From an uncultured Lachnospiraceae bacterium (GTDB lineage: Bacteria > Bacillota > Clostridia > Lachnospirales > Lachnospiraceae): a stretch of 64,000 bases of DNA. The stretch lies in contig CANQAR010000006.1 in the NCBI GenBank assembly GCA_947588845.1, positions 3,903-67,902 of the forward strand. Direction: 5' to 3'. A program made the translations under genes and the position numbers. Below are positions 3,734 to 64,000 of the stretch, in pieces; the first letter of the stretch is position 1, and each line of letters begins with the position of its first letter. The notes below the pieces were generated by a model. That model was given only the letters and a program-made list of their open reading frames with translations. It searched no databases and had not been told where the DNA came from.

Positions 3734-4417
3734 ATGAAGATCATACTGGCGTCTGGCTCTCCGAGGCGAAAGGAGCTTCTGGAGCAGATCGGACTGAAAT
3801 TTGAAGTGATTCCGGCAAGGGGAGAGGAGATCATCACAAAGACGATTCCGTCGGAAATTGTGTGTGAGCTTTCCCGGCAGAAAGCGGAGGAAGTTGCGGC
3901 CAGGGTCATGCCCGCGCCCGGCGCGTCAGCGGCCAGGGAAAGCTCGGAAGAAGAGTCAGGGAACCGGAAAGCCGTGTCTGAGCCCGGCGCGTCAGCCCGG
4001 GATGCGGCAAAGGATGCCGGCCATGAAGCGCAGGTCATCATAGGAGCGGACACAGTCGTCTGTCTTGACGGCAGAGTGATGGGCAAGCCTGCCGACAGGG
4101 AATCCGCCATCAGGATGCTGGAAGAACTTCAGGGAAGAAAGCATTCGGTATATACCGGGGTTACCGTGCTGGTCAGAAAACCGGGGCAGGAGATGATCCG
4201 CCATACGTTTTTCTGCGAGACGAAAGTGGAAATTTATCCGATGGAGCAATGTGACATTGAGGAGTATACAGACACGGGAGATCCCATGGACAAAGCGGGA
4301 GCCTACGGGATTCAGGGGTGTTTTGCCGCGTGGGTCAAGGCAATTGAGGGAGACTACAATAATGTGGTGGGGCTGCCGGTGTCGGCGCTGTGGCAGGTAT
4401 TGAAGAATTACCGGTAA
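3734..4417 (+). CDS. maf: Maf-like nucleoside triphosphate pyrophosphatase (septum formation protein) with internal low-complexity insert
   Basis: MKIILASGSPRRKELLEQIGLKFEVIP N-terminus and a GAYGIQG motif near the C-terminus. AAGGAG RBS before ATG 3734. A roughly 45-aa Ala/Ser/Glu-rich insert lies at about 3893-4030. Confidence 0.85.
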   Translation: MKIILASGSPRRKELLEQIGLKFEVIPARGEEIITKTIPSEIVCELSRQKAEEVAARVMPAPGASAARESSEEESGNRKAVSEPGASARDAAKDAGHEAQVIIGADTVVCLDGRVMGKPADRESAIRMLEELQGRKHSVYTGVTVLVRKPGQEMIRHTFFCETKVEIYPMEQCDIEEYTDTGDPMDKAGAYGIQGCFAAWVKAIEGDYNNVVGLPVSALWQVLKNYR

Positions 4418-15883: not shown

Positions 15884-17076
15884 GTGTATTATTTAAACCC
15901 GAAAGAACCTGCGGAATTGTTTCGGATGGAATTAAACAGCAGGATATATGTTGATAAAAGTATGCTGATCAGCAAGGTTTCAGAAAATATTGGCACTGGT
16001 TCCCGTTATATCTGCATCACAAAGCCGCGCAGGTTTGGGAAAAGTGTCAACGCCTGTATGCTTGCCGCATATTACACAAAAACTCTGGATACGCATGATT
16101 TATTTGACGGCCTGCAGATTTCTTCGGTCTCTGCCTGCAGACAGCATCTGAATCAGCATCATGTCATTTTTATTGATTTCAGCCGTATGCCCCGCGGTTG
16201 TGAAAATTATGATACGTATATTCAGAGCATCGAGGATATTCTGATCAATGACATACAGGAAGCTTTTCCTGCCACAAAACAGCAAAATTTTTTCAATCTG
16301 GATCAGCTGCTTGTATCAAGCGGGGAAAAATTTATTTTTATTCTGGACGAGTGGGACGCTGTATTTTACGAAGATTTCATGACTGATCGTGATAAAGTCA
16401 GATATCTGAAATTTCTCCGGAACCTTTTGAAGGGACAGGCATATGTAGAACTTGCCTATATGACAGGCGTTCTCCCGATTACAAAATATTCCAGCGGTTC
16501 CGCTTTGAATATGTTCGAGGAGTTCAGCTTTCTCGATGATGATGTCTACGACAGTTTATTTGGATTCACCGAGGATGAAGTGCTGCTTTTATGTCAGAAG
16601 CACACGTCAGTGTCTTTTGAGGAAATCAAATACTGGTATGACGGATATTTTACCAGTGATGGAAGAGCTTTATTTAATCCCCGTTCTGTAAACTATGCGC
16701 TCACTCGTGGAAAATGCCGCAATTACTGGACAGAAACGGGACCGATGAATGAGATTGCGGACTGTATTGAACACAATGTGGATGAGGTACGGGAGGATAT
16801 TGTAAATCTTGTTTCCGGGATACCAGTAGAAATCAGGCTAAATGGATACAGTGCTTCTGACCTGCGGCTTGACAGCAGGGATGAAATTTTGTCAGCAATG
16901 GTTGTTTTTGGCTTCTTGTCCTACCATGATCTGACTTTACGGATCCCAAATCATGAACTGATGGAAAAATTTCAGACTGTATTCTCGTTCTGCTCGTTGG
17001 AATAAGTTACAATCGCACTGAAAAAAGACATCGCTGCCTGATTGAAGAATATCAGGGAGCATTGTCTGGCACATAA
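15884..17076 (+). pseudogene. AAA-ATPase-like/PDDEXK_9 family gene with internal deletion and frameshift
   Basis: The N-terminal domain is intact (YVDKS, KPRRFGKS, FILDEWD). The ORF stops at 17005, yet the -1 frame continues as VGISYNRTEKRHRCLIEEY to 17076, which is the usual extreme C-terminus of the family. The PD-(D/E)XK core in between is missing. Confidence 0.65.
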
Positions 17077-20763: not shown

Positions 20764-20834
20764 AGCGGGTGATGGGAATCGAACCCACGTGTCCAGCTTG
20801 GAAGGCTGGTGTTCTACCATTGAACTACACCCGC
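20764..20834 (-). tRNA. tRNA-Gly (anticodon TCC)
   Basis: Hand-folded cloverleaf: acceptor GCGGGTG/CACCCGC, D-arm GTTC..GAAC, anticodon stem CCAGC/GCTGG with loop CTTCCAA, T-loop TTCGATT. No encoded CCA. Confidence 0.9.
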
Positions 20835-20907
20835 ATAAATCTTATTCATTTTTATAAAGAAAACGGAACCCTGAATCACCAAGGGTTCCGCTGCCCCTGC
20901 CAAGGAG

Positions 20908-20981
20908 TCGATGCGACAGGATTTGAACCTGCGACCTCTGCGTCCCGAACGCAGCGCTCTACCAAGCTGAGCCACGCATCG
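20908..20981 (-). tRNA. tRNA-Pro (anticodon CGG)
   Basis: Hand-folded cloverleaf: acceptor CGATGCG/CGCATCG, D-arm GCTC..GAGC, anticodon stem CTGCG/CGCAG with loop TTCGGGA, T-loop TTCAAAT. Confidence 0.9.
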
Positions 20982-21067: not shown

Positions 21068-22342
21068 TTAAAATTTTTTGATCAGCACTTTTTTCCCCTT
21101 AAATGCAAATCCATATTTGCGGATACGATTCTCTGGTATTTTTCGTGAGATCAGGTATGCCGTGTAATTCTGGCGTTCGATCTGCTCCAGCGCGTTTTGG
21201 GCGGTGTCTTCCAGGGTTTTGTCTTCGTCGGGATCGAATACTTTAAATTCTATGACAGCCGCGAAGTCTTCTGCGCGCAGAGGCTCCAGCATAATGTCAT
21301 ATCTGCCGTAGCCGCTTTCACGGTTGGAAGTAATGACATAGCGTCCGTTCAGATCCACAATCAGTCCGAGTACAAAACCGTGATAGAACCGTTCCGGTTC
21401 GTTTGCGCAGGAGGGGCGGTTTCCGCTGTCAAAAAAACGGAATGTTGTGAGCGCTGTGTTGTTCATATAAGCGTTCATTGCTTTGACATCATCGCGCAGC
21501 AGAGCACGGATGAACAGGTTGTAATCAGGTTCGCGTTCCGCAAACCAGGCATGCACGATGCTGCGGAACATAAAAAGGACTTCTCTGTTTGTCAGAGATA
21601 ATTTATAATAAGGCATGTCGGTGAAAAAGAACGTTTCCGCACCTTCTTCTGGCTGGTCGGCAGCAAAATTGCGGGGAGAGTAAGGATCCGACTCCGCAGT
21701 TTTTACAACTTTCAGGTAGCCGCATGCAAGGAGAAGGCTCCAGATGGCCGTTTCGTTCTGCGCCAGCTGTGAGAAAACAATCTGTTCGTCGAGAACGGTT
21801 TCCAGAGATCTGCCCTGAAGCAGATCCTCAAAATGAATTTTCAGCTGAGGGCTTCCGGTCTGGATGAGGCGGCTGATCAGTTCATTGCTGCTGGTATTTG
21901 CCCAGTAACAGGACAGTTTTTTACTGCGAAGATAGTTAATGATCGACCAGGGATTGTAAATGCCGGAGATACTGCCGAACGTGAAGCCGTCGTACCACTG
22001 CTTTACCTCGTTTTTTCTGTCCGAAAGTCCGTACTCATCCAATGCGCGAAAGACTTCTTCCTCCGTGAATCCGAAACAGTCGGCGTACTCGGCGGAAGTG
22101 GTTGTAATCACAGACAGATTATTCAGGTCTGAAAAAACGGACTCTCTGCTGACGCGCGTGATTCCTGTCATGAGCGCGCGCTCCATAAAAGGATTTGTCT
22201 TAAATGCCGCATTGAACAGACTGCGGATAAAAACCATGAATTTGTCCCAGTAGCCATGAACAAATGCTTCCTGCATTGGAGTATCATATTCATCAAGCAG
22301 AATGAGAACCTTTTTCCCGTAATAGCGCGACAGATTTTTCAC
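21068..22342 (-). pseudogene. 5'-truncated AAA-ATPase-like/PDDEXK_9 family gene
   Basis: The ORF begins at the motif KKVLILLDEYD, which lies at about residue 150 in the paralog at 15884. An in-frame stop lies about 20 codons upstream, and no Walker-A-like PRRFGKS segment is present. The C-terminal PD-(D/E)XK core is intact (GYGRYDIMLEP...AVIEFKV). Confidence 0.6.
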
Positions 22343-22528: not shown

Positions 22529-23941
22529 ATGAGTCGGATATTATTTTATATGAAGCAGAGCCGTCATCGGGCGGACAGCCTTTCTTTTATGCGAAAGCTG
22601 GAGGCGCAGGGATTTTTCTGCCGGATGTGTGGGAAATCCGATGGGGATGATCGGGGTGGAGAATTTTTTCCTGTGGATTTTGAAAAGAAAGGCATTTCGT
22701 TTTCTGGTGGGGGGACATCGGAAATTTCGTGTGGTGAGGGACAGGAAACCATGGTTCCGAATGATGGAAAATGGAAGGTTATAGGTTTGGATGGAGAGAG
22801 ATGTTTATCTGTGGGCCTGGGTGGAGAGGAATGTTCATCTGTGGGCCCAGATGGAGAGAAATGTCCGCTTGTGGGGGCGGATGGGGAGGAATGCCCATCT
22901 GTGAGTCCAACTGGAGAAGAACGTGCGCTGGTGATCACGGATGACGCAGTAGTGGCCGGAATCTGTGAACTGCGGAAAATTGCCTGCATCGGATACTGTC
23001 CGCCCGAATTGGAAGAAACCGGATCAGAGGACTCGGATCTGTCTGGGGATATGGAAAGAGATCCGGCAGCAGAAGCTGAAAAAGAATCTGTGTCAGAAGA
23101 AAACGGGGAATCTGGTTATTTTCCGCATGTCCGTATGGTGTGGGAGAGCTTTGCGGGCAGGGAGCCGGAAGAACTGGAACAGTTCCGATGCCGGTTTTAC
23201 GGGGAGCCGGTCGTCATCGCGCGCACAGAGAGACTGCTGATTCGCGAGAGTGTACCGGAGGATTTTGATGCAATTTATCGGATGGAGTCTGACATGGTCT
23301 CCGAGCAGGAACTCTGTGAGGACAGGAAAAAAATCTGTTCTTGCAGCGCAGCAGGAGACAGTAAAAAAGAGAGAAAAGAGGATCGTATAGCAGGAGAAAT
23401 AATCTGCTTTCATGAAGAGAGAGAAAAGTTCTGTTCCTATATAAAAAATGTCTACCCATTTTACGGATACGGTTACTGGACGGTCGAACTGACAGAATCG
23501 GGCCGGGAGGGGACAGTACTCGGGCGCTGTGGTCTGAAGGATTATGAGCCGGGGGAAGATGACGGATATGTTGTCATGAAGAAAGAAGCAGGGGATGAAT
23601 TGATGCGGAAATCGATCCTTGTATTGCCTCAGGAATCTGAGTTCGAAGAGGAGGCTGAGTCTGAGATCTGCTGTTCGGATTGTCTGCCAGAGTTCCGGCA
23701 GGAGATCGGCTCCGAATTGCAGCAGGTTTTCCCACCGGAACTTTTCTGTCTGGAGCTTGGGTATATTGTTGCAAAACCTTACCACAGACAGGGCTATGCT
23801 TATGAGATGTGCAGGGCTGTGCTGGACTATGCGTTTGCCGTGCTGCGCGCGGATATGGTCATGGTCAGGATTCATCCTCAAAACAAAGCTTCGCTGGAAC
23901 TGGCCCGGAAGCTGGGATTAGCAGGTTTTTCTTTTTTATAA
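22529..23941 (+). CDS. RimJ/RimL-like GNAT acetyltransferase with long N-terminal extension and internal inserts
   Basis: C-terminal half shows TERLLIRESVPEDFDAIY ... LELGYIVAKPYHRQGYAYEMCRAVLDYAF ... NKASLELARKLGL. The N-terminal 220 aa match no family I recognise and contain the decapeptide repeats. Confidence 0.6.
   Translation: MSRILFYMKQSRHRADSLSFMRKLEAQGFFCRMCGKSDGDDRGGEFFPVDFEKKGISFSGGGTSEISCGEGQETMVPNDGKWKVIGLDGERCLSVGLGGEECSSVGPDGEKCPLVGADGEECPSVSPTGEERALVITDDAVVAGICELRKIACIGYCPPELEETGSEDSDLSGDMERDPAAEAEKESVSEENGESGYFPHVRMVWESFAGREPEELEQFRCRFYGEPVVIARTERLLIRESVPEDFDAIYRMESDMVSEQELCEDRKKICSCSAAGDSKKERKEDRIAGEIICFHEEREKFCSYIKNVYPFYGYGYWTVELTESGREGTVLGRCGLKDYEPGEDDGYVVMKKEAGDELMRKSILVLPQESEFEEEAESEICCSDCLPEFRQEIGSELQQVFPPELFCLELGYIVAKPYHRQGYAYEMCRAVLDYAFAVLRADMVMVRIHPQNKASLELARKLGLAGFSFL
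22784..22933 (+). repeat. 5 x 30-bp in-frame tandem repeat (Cys-containing decapeptide)
   Basis: Units start at 22784, 22814, 22844, 22874 and 22904. They encode GLDGERCLSV / GLGGEECSSV / GPDGEKCPLV / GADGEECPSV / SPTGEERALV. Confidence 0.9.
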
Positions 23942-24823: not shown

Positions 24824-24852
24824 TCGACGAACGCCGCCTCTTGTGATATACT
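24824..24852 (+). promoter_or_regulatory. candidate promoter of the GTPase-NYN fusion gene
   Basis: TCGACG (24824-24829), 17-nt spacer, TATACT (24847-24852). The -35 is weak. Confidence 0.3.
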
Positions 24853-24885
24853 GGACAAAGTATTTTTACAAGAGGGGGCGTTTTT

Positions 24886-27800
24886 ATGGGAGAACAGATG
24901 AAAAAGAAGGAGTCCAAAAAGCATATCTGCCTCGGCATTCTCGCCCATGTCGACGCGGGAAAGACGACTTTGTCGGAGGCCCTGCTGTATCTTGGCGGAA
25001 GTATCCGCAAAATGGGGCGCGTGGATCACAAGGACGCGTTTCTTGACACGTTTGAGCTGGAGCGCGCGCGTGGAATCACAATTTTCTCAAAACAGGCGCA
25101 GCTGACCTTTGGTGATATGGAACTCACGCTTCTCGACACGCCGGGGCATGTGGATTTTGCGGCGGAGATGGAGCGCACGCTGCAGGTGCTGGATTATGCG
25201 GTGCTGGTGATTAGCGGCGCCGATGGAGTACAGGGGCATACGGAGACACTCTGGAAGCTGCTCGCGCAGTACCGGGTGCCGGTTTTTTTATTTGTGAATA
25301 AGATGGATCAGCCGGGAACGGACCGGCAGGCGCGAATGGAAGAACTTGTCCGCAGGCTGGACGGGAACTGCATTGATTTCGGCGCTGATCCGGATTCGGA
25401 GGAATTTCTTGAGAATCTCGCGATGTGCGACGAGGATGTAATGGAATGTTATCTGGAGACAGGCGAAGTGACGGCGGAGGACACGGCGCGGATGATCCGG
25501 GAAAGAAAGGTGTTTCCGTGCTTTTTCGGCTCTGCGCTGAAACTGACCGGCGTGGAGGAATTGATTGAAGGGCTGGCAAAGTACACGCTCAATCCGGTAT
25601 ACCCGGAAGAATTTGGAGCCAGAGTCTACAAGATTTCCCGTGATGAGCAGGGGAAGCGCCTGACGCATATGAAGATTACGGGGGGCGGCCTGAAGGCGCG
25701 GATGGTGCTGACAAACCGTCTCCCGGAAGTGTCAGAAAGAGAAGATGAAATTTTAAATGCAGCAGGCAGAGACGGAAAAATCCGTAAACAAGGAGCGGAA
25801 CGAGCCAGGATTCCGACTGGAAAAGCAGATGAGGGGGCTGGAAGAACGGTCAGGGATTCGATGGTGAAAGCAGGCAAAGCCGGGAAAACAGAAAACGGAG
25901 GAATATCTGAAAATCCGGCGATGAAAAACAGCGGCCCTGCGGCACGGGAGATTCCGGAAGACCAGATATGGGAGGAGAAGGTGGATCAGATCCGCATTTA
26001 CTCCGGGACGAAATTTGAGGCGGTGCAGGAGGCGGCAGCCGGGGCGGTCTGCGCTGTGACAGGACTTACGAAGACCTGGCCGGGACAGGGGCTTGGAATA
26101 GAGCGGGAGACAGTGCTGCCGGTGCTCTCTCCGGTGCTGACGTACCGCATCGATCTTCCGGAGGACTGTGACGTCCATGTAGCGCTGCAGAAGCTGCGCC
26201 AGCTTGAAGAGGAGGAACCGCAGCTTCATATTGTGTGGAACGAGCAGCTTGGAGAAATCCATGCGCAGGTGATGGGCGAGGTACAGATCGAGATCCTGCA
26301 GAGTCTGATCCGTGACCGCTACGGGATGGAGGTCACGTTCGGGACGGGGAATATTGTGTATAAGGAGACGATCCGGGAGCCGGTCGAAGGCGCCGGACAT
26401 TTTGAGCCGCTGCGCCACTATGCGGAGGTGCATCTGCTGCTTGAGCCCGGAGAGCCGGGAAGCGGAATCCAGGTCGAGTCCGCCTGCAGTGTGGACGAGC
26501 TGGATCTGAACTGGCAGAGGCTGGTGCTCACGCACCTGCTTGAGAAAGAGCATGTCGGAGTCCTTATCGGAGCGCCGCTGACGGATGTGCGGATCACGCT
26601 GACGGCGGGGCGCTCCCATCTGAAGCATACGGAGGGCGGCGATTTTCGCCAGGCTACTTACCGGGCGGTGCGTCAGGGACTGAAAAAGGCGGACAGTGTT
26701 CTTCTTGAGCCGTTTTACGCGTTTCGGCTGGAGGTCCCTTCGGAGACGGTCGGCAGGGCTCTCTCGGATATCCAGCGGATGTACGGTTCCTTCGACTCTC
26801 CTGAGATTGAGGGGGATATGACGGTGCTGACGGGGAGCGTTCCCGTCTCTGAGATGCGCGGCTATCAGATGGAAGTCAGCGCGTACACGAAGGGACGCGG
26901 CCGTCTGGCCTTCCGTCTGGAAGGGTACCGGCCATGCCACAATGCGGAAGAGATCATAGAAGAAGTCGGTTACGATTCGGAGAGGGATCTGGAGAATCCG
27001 ACCGGATCGGTCTTCTGTGCTCACGGTGCGGGATTTGTGGTGAGCTGGGACAAGGCTGATTCCTATATGCATGTCGAAAGCGGCGTGGAGTGGGTCGCAG
27101 AGGAAGACGGGAAAGAGAAGGCCGTTCTGCGGGGATTTTACCGAAATGCAGGTTCCGGCTGTGATTTTTCCAGTGACACATCCGGTACGGAGATGATGTC
27201 GGATACAGGGGAATCATCCGGTAAAATACCGGGAAAGGAAACACAGACCGGCAGGAGAGAGTTGTCCGGCGGAGCGCGTAGAGATGGAGCACAGTCCGGC
27301 GGGATGCCGCCTCCGATGGGTATGCCGTCCGGTACAGCCTACGAGGACCGTTTTCACGATGAGGAAGAACTGAAGGCGATCTTTGCGCGAACTTACGGGA
27401 CGTCTTCCGGGGAGTCAAGGATGGCATGGAAACGCTCGAAAGGAAGCATCGCCTCGTCGGGAAAGAGGTCCGGCGCTTCATCGGAGAAAAATTCCGGCGC
27501 GGCAGGGAATTTTCCCCGGATGGACAGCAGGTCTGGACAAAACAGCGTAGGCGCGCCCGGCAGAACCGCGAAAAAAGAGGAGCCTGTGACGGAATATCTG
27601 CTGGTTGACGGATATAACATTATCTTTGCCTGGGATGAGCTGAAAGAACTCGCTGAGGCGGATATCGGAGCCGCGAGGACAAAACTGATGGATGTGCTCT
27701 GCAATTATCAGGGGTTTGCCGAATGCCGGCTGATTCTGGTATTTGACGCGTACAAGGTGGAAGGATTTACGGGCGAAGTTATAAAATATCACAATATTTA

Positions 27801-28113
27801 TGTTGTATATACAAGGGAAGCGGAGACGGCGGATCAGTACATCGAGAAGACTGTGCGCGAGATCGGGAAGAGGTATCATGTTACCGTGGCCACTTCCGAC
27901 CGTCTTGAGCAGGTCATTATTCTGGGCGACGGAGCGAGAAGACTGTCCGCGTCGGATTTAAAAGAGGAGATTCTCTATATGAATGAGCAGATCCGCCAGG
28001 CATACCGCAGCAGGCGGGAGAACAGCGGCAGGAATTATCTGTTTGACAGTCTTGACGAGGATCTGGCACAGTATATGGAAGAAGTGCGGCTGGGACGGTC
28101 GAAATTTAAGTGA
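24886..28113 (+). CDS. TetM/EF-G-type translational GTPase fused to a Rae1/YacP-type NYN endoribonuclease domain
   Basis: One uninterrupted 1075-codon ORF. G1 AHVDAGKT, G3 DTPGH and G4 NKMD are followed by EF-G-like domains II-V, up to about nt 27087. A Gly/Ser/Arg-rich linker spans about 27088-27585. The NYN domain spans about 27592-28010, with LLVDGYN, VFDA, ETAD and ATSD motifs collinear with B. subtilis YacP. AGAGGGGG RBS. Confidence 0.85.
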   Translation: MGEQMKKKESKKHICLGILAHVDAGKTTLSEALLYLGGSIRKMGRVDHKDAFLDTFELERARGITIFSKQAQLTFGDMELTLLDTPGHVDFAAEMERTLQVLDYAVLVISGADGVQGHTETLWKLLAQYRVPVFLFVNKMDQPGTDRQARMEELVRRLDGNCIDFGADPDSEEFLENLAMCDEDVMECYLETGEVTAEDTARMIRERKVFPCFFGSALKLTGVEELIEGLAKYTLNPVYPEEFGARVYKISRDEQGKRLTHMKITGGGLKARMVLTNRLPEVSEREDEILNAAGRDGKIRKQGAERARIPTGKADEGAGRTVRDSMVKAGKAGKTENGGISENPAMKNSGPAAREIPEDQIWEEKVDQIRIYSGTKFEAVQEAAAGAVCAVTGLTKTWPGQGLGIERETVLPVLSPVLTYRIDLPEDCDVHVALQKLRQLEEEEPQLHIVWNEQLGEIHAQVMGEVQIEILQSLIRDRYGMEVTFGTGNIVYKETIREPVEGAGHFEPLRHYAEVHLLLEPGEPGSGIQVESACSVDELDLNWQRLVLTHLLEKEHVGVLIGAPLTDVRITLTAGRSHLKHTEGGDFRQATYRAVRQGLKKADSVLLEPFYAFRLEVPSETVGRALSDIQRMYGSFDSPEIEGDMTVLTGSVPVSEMRGYQMEVSAYTKGRGRLAFRLEGYRPCHNAEEIIEEVGYDSERDLENPTGSVFCAHGAGFVVSWDKADSYMHVESGVEWVAEEDGKEKAVLRGFYRNAGSGCDFSSDTSGTEMMSDTGESSGKIPGKETQTGRRELSGGARRDGAQSGGMPPPMGMPSGTAYEDRFHDEEELKAIFARTYGTSSGESRMAWKRSKGSIASSGKRSGASSEKNSGAAGNFPRMDSRSGQNSVGAPGRTAKKEEPVTEYLLVDGYNIIFAWDELKELAEADIGAARTKLMDVLCNYQGFAECRLILVFDAYKVEGFTGEVIKYHNIYVVYTREAETADQYIEKTVREIGKRYHVTVATSDRLEQVIILGDGARRLSASDLKEEILYMNEQIRQAYRSRRENSGRNYLFDSLDEDLAQYMEEVRLGRSKFK

Positions 28114-28186
28114 GAGAAGCGGCCCTGCCCTGTCGGCTTTGCGCCGCGGGCACGGCTTCCTTCATTCTGCGTGAGGACAAAGTGAA

Positions 28187-28213
28187 ACAGCCGATAGGGG
28201 AGCTATCGGCTGT
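28187..28213 (+). terminator. hairpin after the fusion gene (possible terminator, no U-tract)
   Basis: ACAGCCGATAG (28187-28197) pairs with CTATCGGCTGT (28203-28213), with a 5-nt loop. Confidence 0.35.
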
Positions 28214-28534
28214 CTCGAGGGGAGTATAAATAATTAATAAGGGGTTTTGTAAAAAAAATTTTTGAAGGGTAAATTCTTTTTACAAGAGAGATTATAATAT
28301 AACTTCCATAAAATTGCAACAGATTTTTTTCAAAAATGTTAAATTTTGGAGAAGTGGGTTTCGGGAGCGTGCAGAAACTTCGTTTTGTCTTGCAGGAACC
28401 TCCGCAAAAGAAAGAGAATACGGCTGGATGCATATTTTTTGTTACATGCCAGAGGGAGTAATTGTTAAAATTTCGTTAAACGAAAAACTCTGTATTGACA
28501 ATGGAAATATTTCGTGTTTGGATGTAGGAGAAGA

Positions 28535-40373: not shown

Positions 40374-43300
40374 ATGAAAGAATGGGAAGCGAAATTTGAT
40401 GAAAATACGCTGGAGCGCGGAAGGACGGCCTGCAGGAACAGGCGCGTGATGAATTTAAAGCAGGACGGGGATGTTTTCCGCGCGGGCGTACTTTCGAGAA
40501 CGAGGTCGGAAGTGACGATCAAAATGCGCGACGGCAGCCCTGTGCAGATGTCCTGTTCCTGCCCGGTACCGAAGAGCGGCAGGAACTGTGAGCACATGGC
40601 GGCCGTTCTTTATGCAATCGAAATGCTGAACAACCCCGGGGAGCAGGAGCTGGCGGAGCAAGAAGCGGCTGCAGAACAGCGCCGGGATGAGGGGACTCCG
40701 GAGAAGAAAACAAGAAATGCCGGAAGGAAAAAAACAGCCGAGAGAACGGCTGCGGAAGAGATGCCGGATCGCAAAGAGATGGGAGCAGAGGCGACACCGG
40801 AAGAAACGAGAGCTGCAGAAACAGTACAGAACAAAAAGAAAACCGGAGCAAGGGGGCGGAAGAAAATAACGGAAGCAACGGCAGAGGTTCAAAAGGAAGA
40901 AAAAGTCCCTGCATCCGGGACACAGCAGGAAGAGGACGCATCCTCCGTCCAGAAAAAGCCCCGCAAGAAAAGAATGACGAAGGCGGAGAAACTTCTCTTG
41001 GAACAGCAGAAAGCAGAAGAAGAGCAGAAACGCCGGGAAGAGGAGCAGGCTGCTCTGGAGGAACAACGCAAAGAACTGGAAAAGGCAAAAAAAGAGACGG
41101 AAGAATTTCTCCGTCAGGAGAAGGAGCGCCAGGAAAAGCGCGACGCCCGAAAGAAGAGAAAAGAAGAGAGAGCGCGCCGGGAGGAAGAGCGCAGGCAGAA
41201 AGCGGAGGAAGCGAGAAATAAGGAGTATGAGAGGCTGCGCGCGGAGGAAAAAAAGCGCGAGGAAATAAAGAAGCAGCAGGAACTTGAGGAGCAGAGAAGG
41301 GCGGAGAAGCGGCGTATGGAGCAGGAAGCCGCCAGGCTGGCGGATGAGCGCCGCCGCATGGAAGAAAAACAGGCCCGGAAGAAAAATGTCCGCAGTGCGG
41401 CCTGGACAGATGAAAACAGCGATCGGCAGGAAACTGAGCGGAAGAGGCTGAACGATTATCTGGATGAGGATCAGCTGAATGCTCTGGGACAAGGCCGGAA
41501 AAACTGGTATTCCGGCGAAAAGAATCCGGAAGAGTGGGAGTCAGGGAAGCGAAATATGGATAACTGGTATGAAGACGACTGGGATGTAGAGGGAGACCGG
41601 GATAAAGAAGACTGGCCGGTGGAAGCCCCGTGGGACGAAGATGATGACTGGAACGTCCAGATGGAAAAAGAAATGCAGGAGTGGATGCGCAGGCAGAAAA
41701 TAAGGGAAGAAAATGCGCGCATTTGGCAGACCAGAAAGAAGGAGTTTTCTGAGATACCAAATCTGAGAGAAGAAGATACGGATCTGGAGGATGCGGACCG
41801 CAGGATCCGCGCGCTTGAAAAATATGCTTATTTTAAAGGAAGAAAGATTCGGGGGTCTGTGAAAATTTCCAAAGATGTACAGAACAGGGGAATGAATCTT
41901 CTCATGCAGGGAAAGATTCTGCTGAATGAAATTACATCCGGCCATGAGAGAAATTCCGGGGAAGTACTCGGGCAGATGAACGCAATCGGTGAGGAAGGCA
42001 GCCGGGAATTTGCCATGGAGCTGATTTTTTCGCAGACGGAGGTCAGAAGGATTACCTGCGGATGCACAAAATGCCGCGGCGAATATTACACCTGGAATCC
42101 GAAAAGCGTCAGCTGTCCGTATAAAGCGGGGCTTCTGGTGTTTATGGAAGAATATCTGAAAGAGCATTCGATCGGGGATGCGACGGATCAGAATGGTCTG
42201 GTGTTCCTGGGCGCTTTTAACAGGAAGCATGAGAGCGAAGTGATAGCGGATACGGTATCCGGCAAGATGAATCTTCGCCTGGAACCAAGACTAATCCGGA
42301 GCGACGGGAAACTGACTCTGTCGTTCCGCGTCGGCGAGAACAGGATGTATGTAGTGAAAAAGCTGGATGAATTCTGTCAGAATGTGAAGAATTCGGCGAC
42401 CACAATGTACGGCGTAACTACAAAAATCAATCATAATATTGATAATTTCACAGAAAGCGGGAAAGAATGGATCCGTTTTATCAATCAGATTGTGCGCGAG
42501 GAACAGGAATTTACGCAGAGACTTGCCGATTCCTGGAATTATTATTATGGGATGAGACGCCTGGAAAGCGGGTCTTCGCTGAATCTGTATGGATGGCGGC
42601 TGGATGAGTTTTACGCGAGGCTGCAGAACGGGCCGGTGGAATTTGAGGACAAGGATGCTCCGGATAAAAAGAAGAAGATGCTGACAGCCCTGGACGCAAA
42701 TCCAAAAGTGACCATGGAGATCACGGCGGATGAGGACTCAAAAGGAGAAAAGGAATTTCATGGAATCTGCGTAAAGGGGACGATTCCCCAGCTGTATGAG
42801 GGGACAGATTCAATGTATTTTATCAACGGAGACTATTTCAGCCGGGTGGACAGGAAATTCACAGAAAGGATTGGGCCTCTGACAAGACTTGCCTCTGGGG
42901 ATGAATTTCTCTTTCGGCTGGGAAGAAATCATATGGCGCAGTTCTATTATGACCTGCTTCCGCAGCTTGAGGATATCATCGATGTCACGGAGACCGAACC
43001 GGAGAAATTCCGCTCTTATCTGCCGCCTCAGGTGAGCTTCCTCTTTTATCTGGACGCGGAAGACGGCGATATGACCTGCCGGGCCTACGCACGGTACGGG
43101 AAAAAGGAATTTTCTGTGTTTGATACAGCGGCCCGTGACCGTGAGACAGCCCCTTTCCGGAATGTGGCAAAGGAGAATGAAATATTGTTTCTGGCGTCGC
43201 AGTGGTTTCCGGAAATAGACTGGGACAGAGACGAACTGTTCTGCGGCGGGGATGAGCAGAGGATGTATCTGGTGCTTGAGAGCGGTGTGGAGCAGCTGAT

Positions 43301-45221
43301 GGAGCTCGGCGAAGTGCACTGCACGAAACGTTTTCTGAGCCGCCGCGTGATTAATCGCGTAAAGGTGTCGGTAGGCGTTTCGGTTGCGGGCGGAATGCTG
43401 GATCTTGAGGTTGCGACCGACGATGTTCCGCAGAGCGAACTGCTGGATATTCTGAAAAGCTACAGGCTCAAGAAGAAATATTACCGGCTGAAGAACGGGG
43501 ATTTCGTGAATCTCGAGGAACAGAATCTTCAGATGCTTGCTGAACTCATGGATTCCATGCATTTAAAGCCGAAGGAGCTCATACAGGGAAGAATGCATCT
43601 TCCGATGTTCCGTACACTCTATCTTGACCGGATGCTGGAGGAAAACGAGGACATTTACAGCCGCCGGGACAGTCACTTCCGCGAGATCATCAAGGGTTTT
43701 AAGACTGTGAAAGACGCGGACTACGAAGAGCCGGAGAGTCTGTCCGGGATCATGCGGAAATATCAGAAGGACGGCTTCAAGTGGCTGAGGACGCTGGAAA
43801 CGTGGAAATTCGGCGGCATCCTGGCCGACGATATGGGCCTTGGAAAGACGCTGCAGATCATAGCGGTGCTGCTGGCCGCGAAGCAGGAGCAGCAGGAAAT
43901 TTCGGCAAGAATGCGGCCGGCGGAAGATTCGGGTCAAACGGAGACCTCAGGGCAGCAGGAAAGTTCGGCTCAGGAAGAGGAGCATGACGTCTCCCTCGTG
44001 GTAGCGCCCGCCTCCCTGGTGTTCAACTGGGGCGAGGAATTCCGCCGGTTTGCGCCGGAGCTTTCCGTCGTGCTGGTCACAGGGACGCAGGAAGAACGGC
44101 ATTCCAGGATTGAGCGCTGGCAGGAGGCGGACGTGCTGGTGACCTCCTACGATCTGCTCAAGCGCGATATCGCGTACTATGAGGATAAGCTGTTCCGTTA
44201 TGAGATCATCGACGAGGCGCAGTACATAAAGAATCACACGACGGCGGCCGCGAAAGCGGTGAAAGTGATAAACAGCCAGATCCGATTCGCGCTGACGGGC
44301 ACGCCGATCGAGAACCGGCTCAGCGAGCTCTGGAGCATCTTTGACTACCTCATGCCGGGCTTTTTGTACGGGTACGATGTGTTCCGGAAGGAACTGGAAA
44401 TTCCGATCGTGAAGAGTAATGACGAGGAGGCCACAAAACGGCTCCAGAAGATGGTGAATCCGTTTATTCTGCGCAGGCTGAAAGGCGATGTGCTGCGAGA
44501 TCTGCCGGAGAAGCTTGAGGAGATCCGCTATGTGAAGTTTGGAAGCGCGCAGCAGAAGCTCTATGACGGTCAGGTGGTTCACATGAAGCAGAGCCTTGCT
44601 TCGCAGAGCGACGATGAGTTCAGCCGCAATAAGATACAGATTCTCGCGGAGCTGACCAGGCTGCGCCAGATCTGCTGTGCGCCGCAGCTCTGTTTTGAGG
44701 ATTATCATGGAGATGCGGCCAAGGTGGAGGCCTGTGTGGAACTGGTGCAGAGCGCAATCGACGGGGAGCACCGGGTGCTGCTGTTCTCTCAGTTCACGTC
44801 CATGCTGGACATGCTGAAAGAGCGCTTCGACGATGCGAAGATTCCGTATTTTATGATCACCGGGAGTACGCCCAAATCAAAGCGGCTGCAGCTGGTGAAG
44901 GAGTTCAACGAAGGAACCGTGCCGCTGTTCCTGATCTCGCTGAAGGCCGGCGGAGTCGGACTGAATCTGACCGGCGCGGACGTGGTCATCCACTATGATC
45001 CGTGGTGGAATCAGGCGGTTCAGAATCAGGCGACCGACCGCGCGCACCGCATCGGACAGACAAAGAAAGTGACCGTGTACAAGCTGCTTGTGAAAAATTC
45101 GATCGAGGAAAAGATCCAGAAGCTGCAGGAAGAAAAGGGAGATCTGGCCGAGCAGATTATCGGCGGCGAGACCGGGCAGCTCGGCAGCATGAGCAGAGAG
45201 GAGTTGCTGGCGCTGCTGTAG
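40374..45221 (+). CDS. SNF2-family helicase/ATPase with N-terminal SWIM zinc finger and long charged insert
   Basis: SWIM CSCPVPKSGRNCEHMAAVL. Second SWIM-like CGCTKCRGEYYTWNPKSVSCPYK. SNF2 motif I LADDMGLGKTLQ and motif II DEAQYIKN. Helicase-C motifs LKAGGVGLNLTGADVVIHYDPWWN and TDRAHRIGQ. Confidence 0.85.
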   Translation: MKEWEAKFDENTLERGRTACRNRRVMNLKQDGDVFRAGVLSRTRSEVTIKMRDGSPVQMSCSCPVPKSGRNCEHMAAVLYAIEMLNNPGEQELAEQEAAAEQRRDEGTPEKKTRNAGRKKTAERTAAEEMPDRKEMGAEATPEETRAAETVQNKKKTGARGRKKITEATAEVQKEEKVPASGTQQEEDASSVQKKPRKKRMTKAEKLLLEQQKAEEEQKRREEEQAALEEQRKELEKAKKETEEFLRQEKERQEKRDARKKRKEERARREEERRQKAEEARNKEYERLRAEEKKREEIKKQQELEEQRRAEKRRMEQEAARLADERRRMEEKQARKKNVRSAAWTDENSDRQETERKRLNDYLDEDQLNALGQGRKNWYSGEKNPEEWESGKRNMDNWYEDDWDVEGDRDKEDWPVEAPWDEDDDWNVQMEKEMQEWMRRQKIREENARIWQTRKKEFSEIPNLREEDTDLEDADRRIRALEKYAYFKGRKIRGSVKISKDVQNRGMNLLMQGKILLNEITSGHERNSGEVLGQMNAIGEEGSREFAMELIFSQTEVRRITCGCTKCRGEYYTWNPKSVSCPYKAGLLVFMEEYLKEHSIGDATDQNGLVFLGAFNRKHESEVIADTVSGKMNLRLEPRLIRSDGKLTLSFRVGENRMYVVKKLDEFCQNVKNSATTMYGVTTKINHNIDNFTESGKEWIRFINQIVREEQEFTQRLADSWNYYYGMRRLESGSSLNLYGWRLDEFYARLQNGPVEFEDKDAPDKKKKMLTALDANPKVTMEITADEDSKGEKEFHGICVKGTIPQLYEGTDSMYFINGDYFSRVDRKFTERIGPLTRLASGDEFLFRLGRNHMAQFYYDLLPQLEDIIDVTETEPEKFRSYLPPQVSFLFYLDAEDGDMTCRAYARYGKKEFSVFDTAARDRETAPFRNVAKENEILFLASQWFPEIDWDRDELFCGGDEQRMYLVLESGVEQLMELGEVHCTKRFLSRRVINRVKVSVGVSVAGGMLDLEVATDDVPQSELLDILKSYRLKKKYYRLKNGDFVNLEEQNLQMLAELMDSMHLKPKELIQGRMHLPMFRTLYLDRMLEENEDIYSRRDSHFREIIKGFKTVKDADYEEPESLSGIMRKYQKDGFKWLRTLETWKFGGILADDMGLGKTLQIIAVLLAAKQEQQEISARMRPAEDSGQTETSGQQESSAQEEEHDVSLVVAPASLVFNWGEEFRRFAPELSVVLVTGTQEERHSRIERWQEADVLVTSYDLLKRDIAYYEDKLFRYEIIDEAQYIKNHTTAAAKAVKVINSQIRFALTGTPIENRLSELWSIFDYLMPGFLYGYDVFRKELEIPIVKSNDEEATKRLQKMVNPFILRRLKGDVLRDLPEKLEEIRYVKFGSAQQKLYDGQVVHMKQSLASQSDDEFSRNKIQILAELTRLRQICCAPQLCFEDYHGDAAKVEACVELVQSAIDGEHRVLLFSQFTSMLDMLKERFDDAKIPYFMITGSTPKSKRLQLVKEFNEGTVPLFLISLKAGGVGLNLTGADVVIHYDPWWNQAVQNQATDRAHRIGQTKKVTVYKLLVKNSIEEKIQKLQEEKGDLAEQIIGGETGQLGSMSREELLALL

Positions 45222-49323: not shown

Positions 49324-50928
49324 ATGGCAAAAATATTCAATACAACTGCCGCCTGTATACCAGAAGAGCATTATATGGTGAACATCGACAGGCGGCTGGA
49401 GGATATAAAGGCACTGGTCGATCAGAATAAGTATTTTACGATTAACCGCGCCCGACAGTATGGAAAGACAACGACATTGAAGGCTCTGGCAAAATATCTG
49501 CGGGAAGAATACTATGTCGTTTCCATGGATTTTCAGAAATTTGACGCGTTGAAATTTGAAAATGGAAATATTTTTTCAGTTTCATTTTTAACTACTTTTT
49601 TAAGGCTGTTTCAGACAAACCGTTCTGCCCTGACAGATGGGGTAAGAAAGGCAATCGATGATTTAAAAGAATGTATGATTTTGCAGGGCTCTTATTTTGG
49701 GATGAAAGAGCTCTTTGAAGGCCTGAGCGATATTTGCTCTGAATCTGAGAAACCGGTTGTGCTGATTATTGACGAAGTGGACAGCGCAGCGAATAATCAG
49801 GTATTTCTTGATTTCCTGGCACAGCTGAGAGCGTATTATATTGACCGCAGGGAGCGGGCTGCATTTTGGTCCGTCATCCTTGCGGGCGTATATGATATAA
49901 AAAACTTAAGGTACAAAATCCGTCCGGAAGATGAACATAAAGTCAACAGTCCGTGGAATATTGCCGCAGATTTTGAGATTGACATGAGTCTTTCAAAAGA
50001 AGGGATTGCGGGTATGCTCCTTGAGTATGAGGCGGATTATCACACAGGTATGGATGTTGAGAAGATGGCAGAAGAGATTTATCAGTATACTTCCGGATAT
50101 CCGTTTCTTGTTTCAAGGCTTTGCCAGCTGATGGATGAAAAAGTGAGCAGACAGGAAGAAGCCGGTTCTAAAGCCGCGGCATGGACAAAAGAGGGATTTT
50201 TGATGGCGGTGAATATGCTGCTTGCAGAAAAGAATACTCTGTTTGAGTCATTAATCGGGAAACTTGACATCTATCCGTCGCTGAATGCCATAATAAAAGA
50301 TATCCTCTTTGCAGGCAGGCCGGTCGCCTGTAATCCTGATCTGGCAGAACTTGATCTGGCTGCCATGTTTGGATTTATAAAAAATCAAAAGGGTCTGGTG
50401 GAGGTCGCAAACAGAATTTTTGAGACAAGGTTATATAATCTGTATCTTTCTGCAGAGGAGCTTCGAAATCAGGATATCTGCAGAAGATCGACAGCAGATA
50501 AAAGTCAGTTTATTACAGATGGACACCTGAATATGAGAAGGATTCTTGAAAAGTTTGCGGAGCATTTCCATGAACTTTATGGAAACAGGGAAGATACGTT
50601 TAAAGAGGAAGAAGGCCGGACATATTTCCTTCTTTACCTCCGGCCGATTATCAACGGAACGGGAAACTACTATATTGAAGCCCGGACAAGAAACATGACC
50701 CGGACAGATCTTATTGTGGACTATCATGGAGAGCAGTATGTGGTTGAGATGAAAATCTGGCATGGCAATGAGTACAACAACCGCGGAGAGCGGCAGCTGA
50801 TCGGTTATCTTGACGATTATGGTTTGAAAAAGGGATATATGATAAGCTTCAATTTTAATAAAAAGAAAGAAGTCGGCGTAAAAGAGCTCGTGATAGGTGA
50901 TAAGGTTCTGATCGAGGCAGTTATATAA
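49324..50928 (+). CDS. ATP-binding protein with C-terminal PD-(D/E)XK nuclease-like domain (intact paralog)
   Basis: P-loop-like RARQYGKTTTL and Walker-B-like VVLIIDEVD. C-terminal DLIVDYHGEQYVVEMKIW motif. Confidence 0.7.
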   Translation: MAKIFNTTAACIPEEHYMVNIDRRLEDIKALVDQNKYFTINRARQYGKTTTLKALAKYLREEYYVVSMDFQKFDALKFENGNIFSVSFLTTFLRLFQTNRSALTDGVRKAIDDLKECMILQGSYFGMKELFEGLSDICSESEKPVVLIIDEVDSAANNQVFLDFLAQLRAYYIDRRERAAFWSVILAGVYDIKNLRYKIRPEDEHKVNSPWNIAADFEIDMSLSKEGIAGMLLEYEADYHTGMDVEKMAEEIYQYTSGYPFLVSRLCQLMDEKVSRQEEAGSKAAAWTKEGFLMAVNMLLAEKNTLFESLIGKLDIYPSLNAIIKDILFAGRPVACNPDLAELDLAAMFGFIKNQKGLVEVANRIFETRLYNLYLSAEELRNQDICRRSTADKSQFITDGHLNMRRILEKFAEHFHELYGNREDTFKEEEGRTYFLLYLRPIINGTGNYYIEARTRNMTRTDLIVDYHGEQYVVEMKIWHGNEYNNRGERQLIGYLDDYGLKKGYMISFNFNKKKEVGVKELVIGDKVLIEAVI

Positions 50929-63130: not shown

Positions 63131-64000
63131 GTGCGCCCGGCGGGCGCACGTTCTAATGGGTGAAAGTCCCTGACCCGCCCGGCAGTGGGAAGGGTGCAGT
63201 CAAGGGCAAGGGCGTCACCGTGAGGTGGGGTCTGAAGGAAGCCGGAGACAAAACACTGGCCTGTAAAAGTTGCCCGGACAGGCTGTGAAGCGTGGATGAG
63301 GTTGCTGAACAAACCAAAATCCAATAACTGCACGGAACGCCAGCAGTATACGGGGCAGGTATAAGTGGGAAAGAACGTGCGAGTACCCGGGGAGATCTCA
63401 CGGACATGGCAATGTGATAAAACATTCGCAGCCATGGTCGAAAAAGGTTTGCCGTGAGAAGTCAGCAGAGCCCATATTACAATACCCGGTGGCTTAAGAC
63501 ACAGGGAAAGGGGCGAACAATAGGAGGTGCCATTCTCAAATGGAAACCGGACATGGAATTAAGTACAGACAACTTCATATCGAGGACTACCTGAGAGAGA
63601 TATCTGCGGAACAGGAAAGGGTATCAGGAGTGTACGCCCATGAATGGATTACCGGGGACACTGACACCAATACGGACTTTTGGACGGACAACCTGCTCGA
63701 TACCATACTTAGAAGCGATAACCTCAATGCCGCATATAAGAAGGTGAAAGAGAACGGAGGCTCCGGTGGGATTGACAGAATGCAGGTGGATGAACTTCTG
63801 CCTTACCTGAGAGAACATCGGAAGGAACTGGTCGGGCAGCTGCGGAGGGGGAAGTACAAGCCCAATCCAGTCCGCAGGGTAGAGATACCAAAGGAGGAGA
63901 AAGGCAAAGTCAGAAAATTAGGAGTGCCCACGATGGTTTCATACTGCACACCTCCCAACAGTGTTTTATAATAACGGCTGTTTCCAGTAATAATGAGGAA
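63131..64000 (+). mobile_element. group II intron, class C-like (5' part; runs to or past the window edge)
   Basis: 5' GTGCGCCCGG. Domain I-III-like motifs GGGTGAAAGTCCC, TCTGAAGGAAGCCGGAGACAAAA, TACCCGGGGAG and GAAGTCAGCAGAG. The RT ORF sits where domain IV is expected. Insertion just after a terminator hairpin is the class C hallmark. Confidence 0.75.
63540..63971 (+). pseudogene. group II intron reverse transcriptase/maturase, truncated after RT block 2
   Basis: SDNLNAAYKKVKENGGSGGIDRMQVDEL and YKPNPVRRVEIPKEEKGKVRKLGVPT match RT domains 0-2. Homology ends at about 63933 (…GVPT|MVSYCTPPNSVL*), where VxDRxxQ would be expected. Confidence 0.7.

Follow-up and report, generated by a model that had tools for sequence, protein, structure and literature searches.

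What might a protein do in which a translational GTPase and a Rae1-type nuclease are joined in a single chain? The question is raised by a gene at positions 24886 to 28113 of a 64,000-nucleotide stretch of DNA, here called the window, from an uncultured Lachnospiraceae bacterium (contig CANQAR010000006.1 of assembly GCA_947588845.1, forward-strand positions 3,903 to 67,902). The reading we favour, at a probability of roughly 0.5, is that the encoded fusion is a Rae1-type mRNA nuclease that would target itself to ribosomes through its own GTPase and act in ribosome rescue. The architecture is common and was already catalogued in 2015 and 2017, and the window gene is one more member of that family. 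What we add is a distinct GTPase subfamily, marked by a domain IV tip and a C-terminal extension of its own, together with a helix-bearing tether that is never shorter than 71 residues and a set of unfused relatives.

An earlier note, made from the letters of the window, had described an uninterrupted open reading frame (ORF) of 1075 codons with a three-part anatomy of GTPase, linker and NYN domain. This description holds: the frame is unbroken, and Pfam recognises both halves. The identical protein is already on record (P0001 in the database protein search). Conservation was scored over 56 fusion relatives that are 52-91% identical to the window protein, and structures were predicted in two AlphaFold 2 (AF2) runs. 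The first covered the full-length protein with an alignment of the 56 fusions only and gave a weak model overall (predicted local distance difference test, pLDDT, 61.6) in which domain IV did not resolve; the second covered residues 1-735 with fused and unfused relatives, and there domain IV is modelled. The parts of the protein are as follows.

24886 to 28113, plus strand: coding sequence of the GTPase-linker-NYN fusion; ATG start, 1075 codons and a stop, no internal stops.
24916 to 25584, plus strand: G domain, residues 11-233 (Pfam GTP_EFTU, E=3e-51, 174 bits against a cut-off of 26.5; model pLDDT 80-95).
25585 to 26130, plus strand: domain II, residues 234-415, split by an insertion (beta-barrel strands in the AF2 model; weak Pfam EF-G_D2 match).
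25711 to 25968, plus strand: charged insertion in a domain II loop, residues 276-361, predicted to be disordered (pLDDT below 50 in both models).
26131 to 26349, plus strand: domain III, residues 416-488 (Pfam EFG_III at 416-486, E=6e-7; confident in the model).
26350 to 26694, plus strand: domain IV, residues 489-603 (Pfam EFG_IV at 489-602, E=7e-17).
26617 to 26649, plus strand: domain IV tip loop, H578-L-K-H-T-E-G-G-D-F-R588, invariant in fused and unfused members.
26695 to 26949, plus strand: domain V, residues 604-688 (Pfam EFG_C at 605-686, E=5.5e-19).
26950 to 27081, plus strand: C-terminal extension of the GTPase, residues 689-732, Y-D-x4-D-x3-P-T-G-S-V-F-C-x-H-G-A-G-F-x-V-x-W...H (from conservation and the model).
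27082 to 27591, plus strand: tether, residues 733-902, rich in G, S, A, E, R and K, predicted to be disordered (pLDDT below 50).
27343 to 27399, plus strand: conserved tether helix, residues 820-838 (EDRFHDEEELKAIFARTYG), from conservation and a helix predicted at 820-837.
27592 to 28110, plus strand: NYN_YacP (Rae1-type) domain with C-terminal helices, residues 903-1075 (Pfam; match to known structures by sequence).

The nuclease half is the easier to place. Pfam NYN_YacP (PF05991) covers residues 905-1068 at E=2.2e-52 and 177.8 bits, against a cut-off of 24.6 bits, and runs from position 1 to 165 of the 166 in the model; the same part of the protein matches the Bacillus subtilis YacP/Rae1 structures 5mq8 and 5mq9 at E=5e-24. 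The collinearity with B. subtilis Rae1 that the earlier note had read from the letters extends across the whole domain, at 36% identity, and the four acidic motifs it listed (LLVDGYN, VFDA, ETAD and ATSD) are shared with Rae1 in register and are invariant in the 56 relatives. The active site of NYN_YacP proteins contains at least four conserved Asp residues (Matelska 2017, PMC5499597); their counterparts here, D908, D954, D983 and D1005, are invariant in the 56 fusions and correspond to D7, D53, D81 and D104 of B. subtilis. The two proteins differ in that B. subtilis Rae1 stands alone (~170 residues; 181-residue PDB chains) and binds the ribosome transiently, whereas in the window protein a tether links the NYN domain to a GTPase and a conserved helix comes before the domain, an N-terminal element that B. 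subtilis Rae1 does not have.

Stand-alone YacP proteins of 171-200 residues from Enterocloster, Lacrimispora and Lachnoclostridium (L041 3833-4564 in Enterocloster lavalensis, L028 157-750, and L088-L092) are 60-65% identical to the fused NYN domain, as against 36% for B. subtilis Rae1, and for this reason the fused domain appears to be the clade's own Rae1 homologue. The sequences suggest that the clade's own yacP was fused to the GTPase, or that it was later split off again. The stand-alone yacP of Enterocloster and Lacrimispora lies directly downstream of a MatE transporter gene. Canonical mrnC-yacO-yacP neighbours were found neither at the five fusion loci whose surroundings we examined (the window, its closest relative, Diplocloster, Blautia and another metagenome-assembled genome, MAG) nor beside the related stand-alone yacP genes; that neighbourhood is typical of the NYN_YacP family, and membership does not require it.

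The GTPase half is equally complete. The motifs that the earlier note had picked out, G1 AHVDAGKT, G3 DTPGH (with the catalytic His88) and G4 NKMD, are all present and invariant in the 56 relatives, and the Pfam matches to EFG_III, EFG_IV and EFG_C all exceed their cut-offs. The model of residues 1-735 shows a five-domain EF-G fold (pLDDT 79, predicted template modelling score 0.67), which Foldseek matches to EF-G at E=6e-52 with TM-scores up to 0.65-0.73. Domain IV, which in EF-G and TetM reaches the decoding centre, is the most conserved region of the protein, with a mean column conservation of 90%; at the positions aligned with its tip loop, TetO has YYSPVSTPADFR and EF-G has SYHDVDSSEMAFK. 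Domain V is followed by an extension of 44 residues (…NPTGSVFCAHGAGFVVSW…H), for which the model gives a helix, a beta-hairpin and a second helix (pLDDT 70-93); in it, Y696, D701, S708, F710, C711, G714-G716, W721 and H729 are invariant.

Both halves look active, since neither G1 to G4 with the catalytic His nor the four Asp residues of the NYN domain vary among the 56 fusions. The closest relative (L007), from an independent assembly and present in three independent assemblies, is 91% identical and allows substitutions to be counted: the folded domains differ by 4-6 amino-acid changes against 24-48 synonymous ones, the tether by 24 amino-acid changes against 16 synonymous ones, and the four indels that separate the two genes (36, 10, 2 and 4 codons) are all in frame. 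It follows from these counts that both halves are under purifying selection and that the tether evolves freely yet keeps its frame.

The linker itself, put at about 165 low-complexity residues in the earlier note, spans residues 733-902 and is predicted to be disordered except for the helix at 820-837. Its length in the 56 relatives ranges from 71 to 186 residues (median 85) and is never below 71; a long tether is obligatory in the family. Within the helix segment DEEELKAIFARTYG, E828 is invariant and L829, I832, F833, R835, T836 and G838 are each at least 90% conserved, and members outside the Lachnospiraceae carry a related tether motif, EEIDxIxNRTYY. A basic W-K-R-x-K patch past the helix was considered as a further family feature and rejected, being present in only 19 of the 56 members.

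How could these parts work together? In B. subtilis, Rae1 is a translation-dependent mRNA endonuclease that acts at stalled or collided ribosomes and feeds transfer-messenger RNA, tmRNA (PMC12407103; PMC13622287), and a September 2026 preprint describes Rae1-dependent tmRNA tagging on collided ribosomes (PMC13622287). The earlier note had assumed that Rae1 cuts in the ribosomal A site. That premise is outdated: work from 2025-26, including that of Deves et al., puts cleavage 12 nt upstream and not in the A site, and with it the idea that domain IV carries the nuclease into the decoding centre loses its main support. Given its length and flexibility, the tether is better suited to action outside the A site than to delivery to the decoding centre. 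From the composition of the protein, we infer that it would bind ribosomes in a GTP-dependent manner, cut mRNA rather than ribosomal RNA (rRNA) at or near that ribosome, and link to tmRNA, in a series of steps that could run as follows:

(i) The GTP form of the GTPase would bind the factor site of a stalled ribosome, or of one with an accessible A site.

(ii) Docking would raise the local concentration of the tethered nuclease.

(iii) The nuclease would then cut the mRNA there, either on the docked ribosome or beside it and probably not within the A site itself; the mRNA entry, the mRNA exit, or the interface with a neighbouring collided ribosome are the candidate sites.

(iv) GTP hydrolysis would free the factor.

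(v) The truncated mRNA would enter trans-translation through tmRNA, and mRNA decay.

The fusion would thus be a Rae1 equipped with a ribosome-targeting module of its own, in contrast to the stand-alone protein, which depends on transient binding. SmrB of Escherichia coli, Cue2/NONU-1 of eukaryotes and MutS2 of B. subtilis (an ATPase with an SMR domain) likewise tie the recognition of stalled or collided ribosomes to cleavage of mRNA or to splitting of the ribosome. The likeness is one of functional analogy only: these proteins use the SMR fold where the window protein has NYN, and none has a translational GTPase as its ribosome-binding module.

The family is widely distributed, and the architecture is shared by thousands of relatives. 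The best 120 matches in the protein database (50-91% identity, 893-1075 aa) all carry both halves, and when 1.8 billion cluster representatives were scanned, all of the best 150 clusters, at the 50% identity level, proved to belong to this family; most of them are fusions, 830-1156 aa long and with an identity as low as 43%. A species-level scan, with one genome per species, gave 80 best loci from 80 genomes: 74 are complete fusion ORFs, four are cut by contig ends, and two are stand-alone NYN genes, some Lachnospiraceae carrying a closely related stand-alone YacP in place of the fusion. The genera among these 80 include Blautia, Mediterraneibacter, Dorea, Faecalimonas, Roseburia, Coprococcus, Acetatifactor, Hungatella, Herbinix and Lachnotalea, with others; each genome contributes one locus and none appears twice. 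The fusion ORF also occurs in complete genomes of cultured strains. With this wide distribution, the gene looks vertically inherited.

The novelty implied in the earlier note does not stand. Atkinson 2015 (BMC Genomics, PMC4342817, Additional file 8) listed Tet proteins with a YacP-like NYN domain in ten Clostridiales strains, from Ruminococcus albus, Eubacterium eligens, E. rectale, Butyrivibrio proteoclasticus, Clostridium cellulolyticum, C. lentocellum, Lachnoclostridium phytofermentans, C. thermocellum and Desulfitobacterium hafniense, and Matelska et al. 2017 (Nucleic Acids Research, PMC5499597) named "TetM-NYN_YacP fusion proteins" in Clostridia and called their role "unclear". The window protein shares the architecture of these catalogued fusions, together with the KHTEGGDFR tip, the SVFCxHGAG extension and the EYLLVDGYN start of the NYN domain; compared with the L. 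phytofermentans fusion it is 66% identical in the G domain, 60% from domain II to the extension, and 49% in the NYN domain.

Unfused GTPases of the same subfamily (P0260, P0255, P0264 and relatives) are 642-706 aa long and 48-56% identical to the window GTPase. They carry the same invariant domain IV tip and extension and end just past the latter, with no tether or nuclease. Their genes are complete and lie in the middle of contigs, with no yacP nearby at the loci examined. They are widespread in MAGs of Clostridia, where they are usually annotated as TetM-family proteins; members of ~642-656 aa (L093 2679-4607, L095 6001-7971, P0415-P0533) bear the NCBI label of the TetM/TetW/TetO/TetS family. 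More speculatively, and with the odds somewhat against it, the fusion may replace stand-alone Rae1 in most Lachnospiraceae and several other Clostridia as a GTP-gated, self-docking no-go-decay nuclease, whose Tet-like GTPase, with its invariant domain IV tip, would detect stalled or collided ribosomes and license cutting of mRNA by the tethered NYN domain; the unfused GTPases may then be a new class of bacterial sensors of stalled ribosomes that work with Rae1 in trans.

Several points weigh against the proposal that the fusion brings a Rae1-type nuclease to ribosomes. Where the cut site would lie relative to the GTPase site is conjecture, since Rae1, whose binding is transient, has no ribosome-bound structure (PMC13622287), and in the full-length AF2 run neither the NYN domain nor the linker helix was positioned with confidence against the GTPase. 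The unfused GTPases indicate that this half has a function of its own beyond the nuclease, which may not be stall recognition. Three proteins, P0269 (670 aa), P0138 (746 aa) and P0243 (754 aa), keep the NYN domain with domain IV and/or V apparently missing; should these be real, the family can sometimes do without docking through domain IV. Some of the group that these form with P0270 (725 aa) carry another linker motif, VEEVDxILxxxxHAN, and its members may be genuine architectures or errors of assembly or gene calling. The list of the best 80 loci is of a kind in which a more distant second yacP in the same genome would not show; in the 64-kb window, a tblastn search found no second copy of yacP or of the GTPase. 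Finally, in the literature on Rae1, YacP, NYN and Tet fusions we found no experimental study of this family, which agrees with the earlier note, to which no characterised protein of such architecture was known.

The alternative that survives best is that the nuclease acts on rRNA, in ribosome maturation or quality control or in the inactivation or turnover of ribosomes under stress. NYN_YacP proteins were first predicted to function in rRNA/tRNA processing, from an operon with mrnC and a putative rRNA methyltransferase (PMC5499597), and a factor at the GTPase centre would keep a tethered nuclease near both rRNAs. Every mapped Rae1 substrate is nonetheless an mRNA, cut in a translation-dependent manner (PMC12407103; PMC13622287). 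The fused NYN domain, moreover, is close to the ordinary stand-alone YacP of related genera and gives no hint of an altered active site, and no consistent rRNA-processing neighbours occur in the fusion loci examined. We consider action on rRNA unlikely.

Still less probable is a TetM/TetO-type tetracycline ribosomal protection protein that has acquired an accessory RNase and serves mainly in resistance. Such a role was entertained by Atkinson 2015, who placed the fusions in the Tet subfamily and suggested antibiotic resistance as a possibility (PMC4342817), and for many members the NCBI label reads [quoted passage not shown]. Tet(M) and Tet(O) do share the five-domain EF-G-like GTPase: tet_protect (NF012153) is the best-scoring NCBIfam model, at 397 bits, and TetO is the top PDB match by sequence, at 251 bits. 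The first score is, however, only about half of the curated cut-off of 775; the specific TetM/W model (NF033148) reaches 263 bits against 1100; and EF-G, at 245 bits, comes almost equal to TetO. The EF-G models fall short as well (TIGR00484, 290 against 659 bits; NF009381, 313 against 583 bits). These comparisons tell against the "TetM-type" label of the earlier note.

The sequence at the tip of domain IV separates the two groups further. Loop III of Tet(M) (L505-Y-Y-S508-P-V-S, domain IV) displaces tetracycline and is its functionally most important element (PMC4750697). The window protein has SHLKHTEGG where TetO has YYSPVSTPA, and the replacement of YYSPVSTP by HLKHTEGG is invariant in the subfamily. 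Since some substitutions in loop III of Tet(M) are tolerated (PMC4750697), weak protection is compatible with the sequence. The C-terminal extension, on the other hand, is a different and longer conserved module than that of the Tet proteins, the fusion carries a nuclease, and its genes sit one per genome (among the best 80) at variable housekeeping loci on the chromosome, with no mobile element called beside them in the loci examined. By its sequence, the GTPase is a distinct Tet-like subfamily, neither EF-G proper nor a bona fide Tet protein, and the annotation of the fusion genes as "tetracycline resistance" is probably wrong.

A toxin that shuts off translation, or an anti-phage effector of abortive infection, which on a signal would destroy mRNA globally on ribosomes, is improbable. 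A 2026 preprint speculates that Rae1 could act on ribosome-stalling phage transcripts (PMC13622287), and upstream of the fusion gene, at distances of 2.5 kb and about 8 kb, there are ORFs with AAA-ATPase_like and PD-(D/E)XK domains. Against this, the fusion protein matches no PADLOC model, no conserved antitoxin or immunity gene adjoins it in the loci examined, its neighbours are metabolic or housekeeping genes that differ completely from genus to genus, and the 74 complete copies among the best 80 species genomes have a vertical look, unlike patchily distributed defence genes.

That adjacent GTPase and yacP genes were joined by a sequencing or assembly error in the linker, an idea invited by its low complexity and poor conservation and by the presence of both unfused GTPases and stand-alone yacP in related organisms, is refuted by comparative data: the same continuous ORF, separated by in-frame indels only and by no frameshift in the linker, recurs in the independent assemblies of the closest relative, the fusion is seen in 74 of the best 80 species genomes, in complete genomes of cultured strains and in all of the best 120 protein matches, and separate GTPase and yacP genes are not neighbours where they are unfused. 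The fusion gene is real and a single gene.

The signals around the gene are these.

24824 to 24852, plus strand: candidate sigma-70-type promoter, TCGACG and TATACT with a 17-nt spacer and a TG extension (weak, from a consensus scan only).
24871 to 24878, plus strand: Shine-Dalgarno sequence AGAGGGGG, 7 nt before the ATG (direct reading of the sequence).
28184 to 28216, no strand assigned: perfect 14-bp hairpin past the stop, a possible terminator (called on the minus strand by the scan).

The role of the hairpin as a terminator is uncertain because no clear T-run follows it on the plus strand. An Rfam search of the 217-bp upstream region found no regulatory RNA or leader element. That region separates the gene from a divergently oriented 181-aa ORF without a family match, near which lies a GNAT gene; downstream, a 200-bp gap is followed by a housekeeping cluster of a decarboxylase, a guanylate-kinase-family gene (PF00625) and holB. 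The gene looks monocistronic, as the earlier note had proposed, and the two gaps, the divergent neighbour and the hairpin after the stop are consistent with such a layout. The neighbours of the fusion in Diplocloster, Blautia and another MAG differ from those in the window, with no conserved operon partner among the genera examined; the association with helix-turn-helix genes reported by Matelska 2017 was likewise not seen in the fusion loci examined. Across genera the contexts look chromosomal and of housekeeping type.

An antisense ORF of 439 codons (25753-27072, minus strand) lies wholly within the fusion gene and is most likely a by-product of a coding strand with high GC content at third codon positions (GC3). 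The charged insertion in domain II, which the earlier note had put at about 85 residues, differs in this respect, with a GC3 of 0.41, while the segments of the gene on either side have 0.68-0.71. The same loop measures 2-86 residues in the 56 relatives (median 18) and is 36 codons shorter in the closest relative. By these sequence comparisons the insertion is lineage-specific; no tandem repeats were found as an origin of either the insertion or the linker. The window protein is the longest among its close relatives, with a tether of 170 residues against a median of 85 and an insertion of 86 against 18.

The remainder of the window is an ordinary saccharolytic chromosome. The upstream GNAT acetyltransferase ORF (22529-23941, plus strand) encodes 470 aa, as against 345 aa in the closest relative (L005/L006); its GNAT domain takes up residues 404-464 only, which leaves a long unexplained N-terminal part or a mis-called start. 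Genes for tRNA-Gly(tcc) and tRNA-Pro(cgg) lie at 20764-20834 and 20907-20981 on the minus strand, ~4 kb upstream of the fusion gene. The AAA-ATPase_like (PF09820) / PD-(D/E)XK (PDDEXK_9) ORFs are three: 15884-17005 (plus strand), 21068-22342 (minus strand) and 49324-50928 (plus strand). The second of these (424 aa) has the nuclease domain and only the C-terminal part of the ATPase domain, with a weak PADLOC match to SspC (E=2e-4); its counterpart in the closest relative (L005) has 603 aa, and the window copy may be truncated or differently started. At 40374-45221 (plus strand) there is a 1615-aa SNF2-family helicase with a bacterial SNF2_assoc domain and a 735-residue N-terminal region without a family match. 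Near the end of the window, at 63214-63381 (plus strand), lies a full-length match to group II intron D1-D4 (RF02001; 93.9 bits, E=1e-17); the rest of that intron and any reverse-transcriptase ORF would fall past the window end.

In itself, the window gene stands out only by the unusual length of its disordered insertion and tether; the meaning of the finding lies with the family. Correcting the annotation would concern thousands of gut-bacterial genes labelled as tetracycline resistance, by which counts of the resistome are probably inflated. Interest in these proteins has risen since Rae1 emerged, in 2025-26, as the Gram-positive nuclease that cuts the mRNA of stalled or collided ribosomes and hands over to tmRNA. 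The fusion, found in many genomes of gut Clostridia beyond the source of the window, joins a Rae1-type domain to a factor of the type that would dock at the GTPase centre; it is a strong clue that a Tet-like GTPase subfamily works with Rae1, and together with the unfused GTPases it points, in sequence terms, to a GTPase partner for Rae1. It also offers a stable handle for structural and biochemical work on a Rae1-type nuclease. If the fusion does dock itself on ribosomes, it could yield the missing structure of ribosome-bound Rae1.

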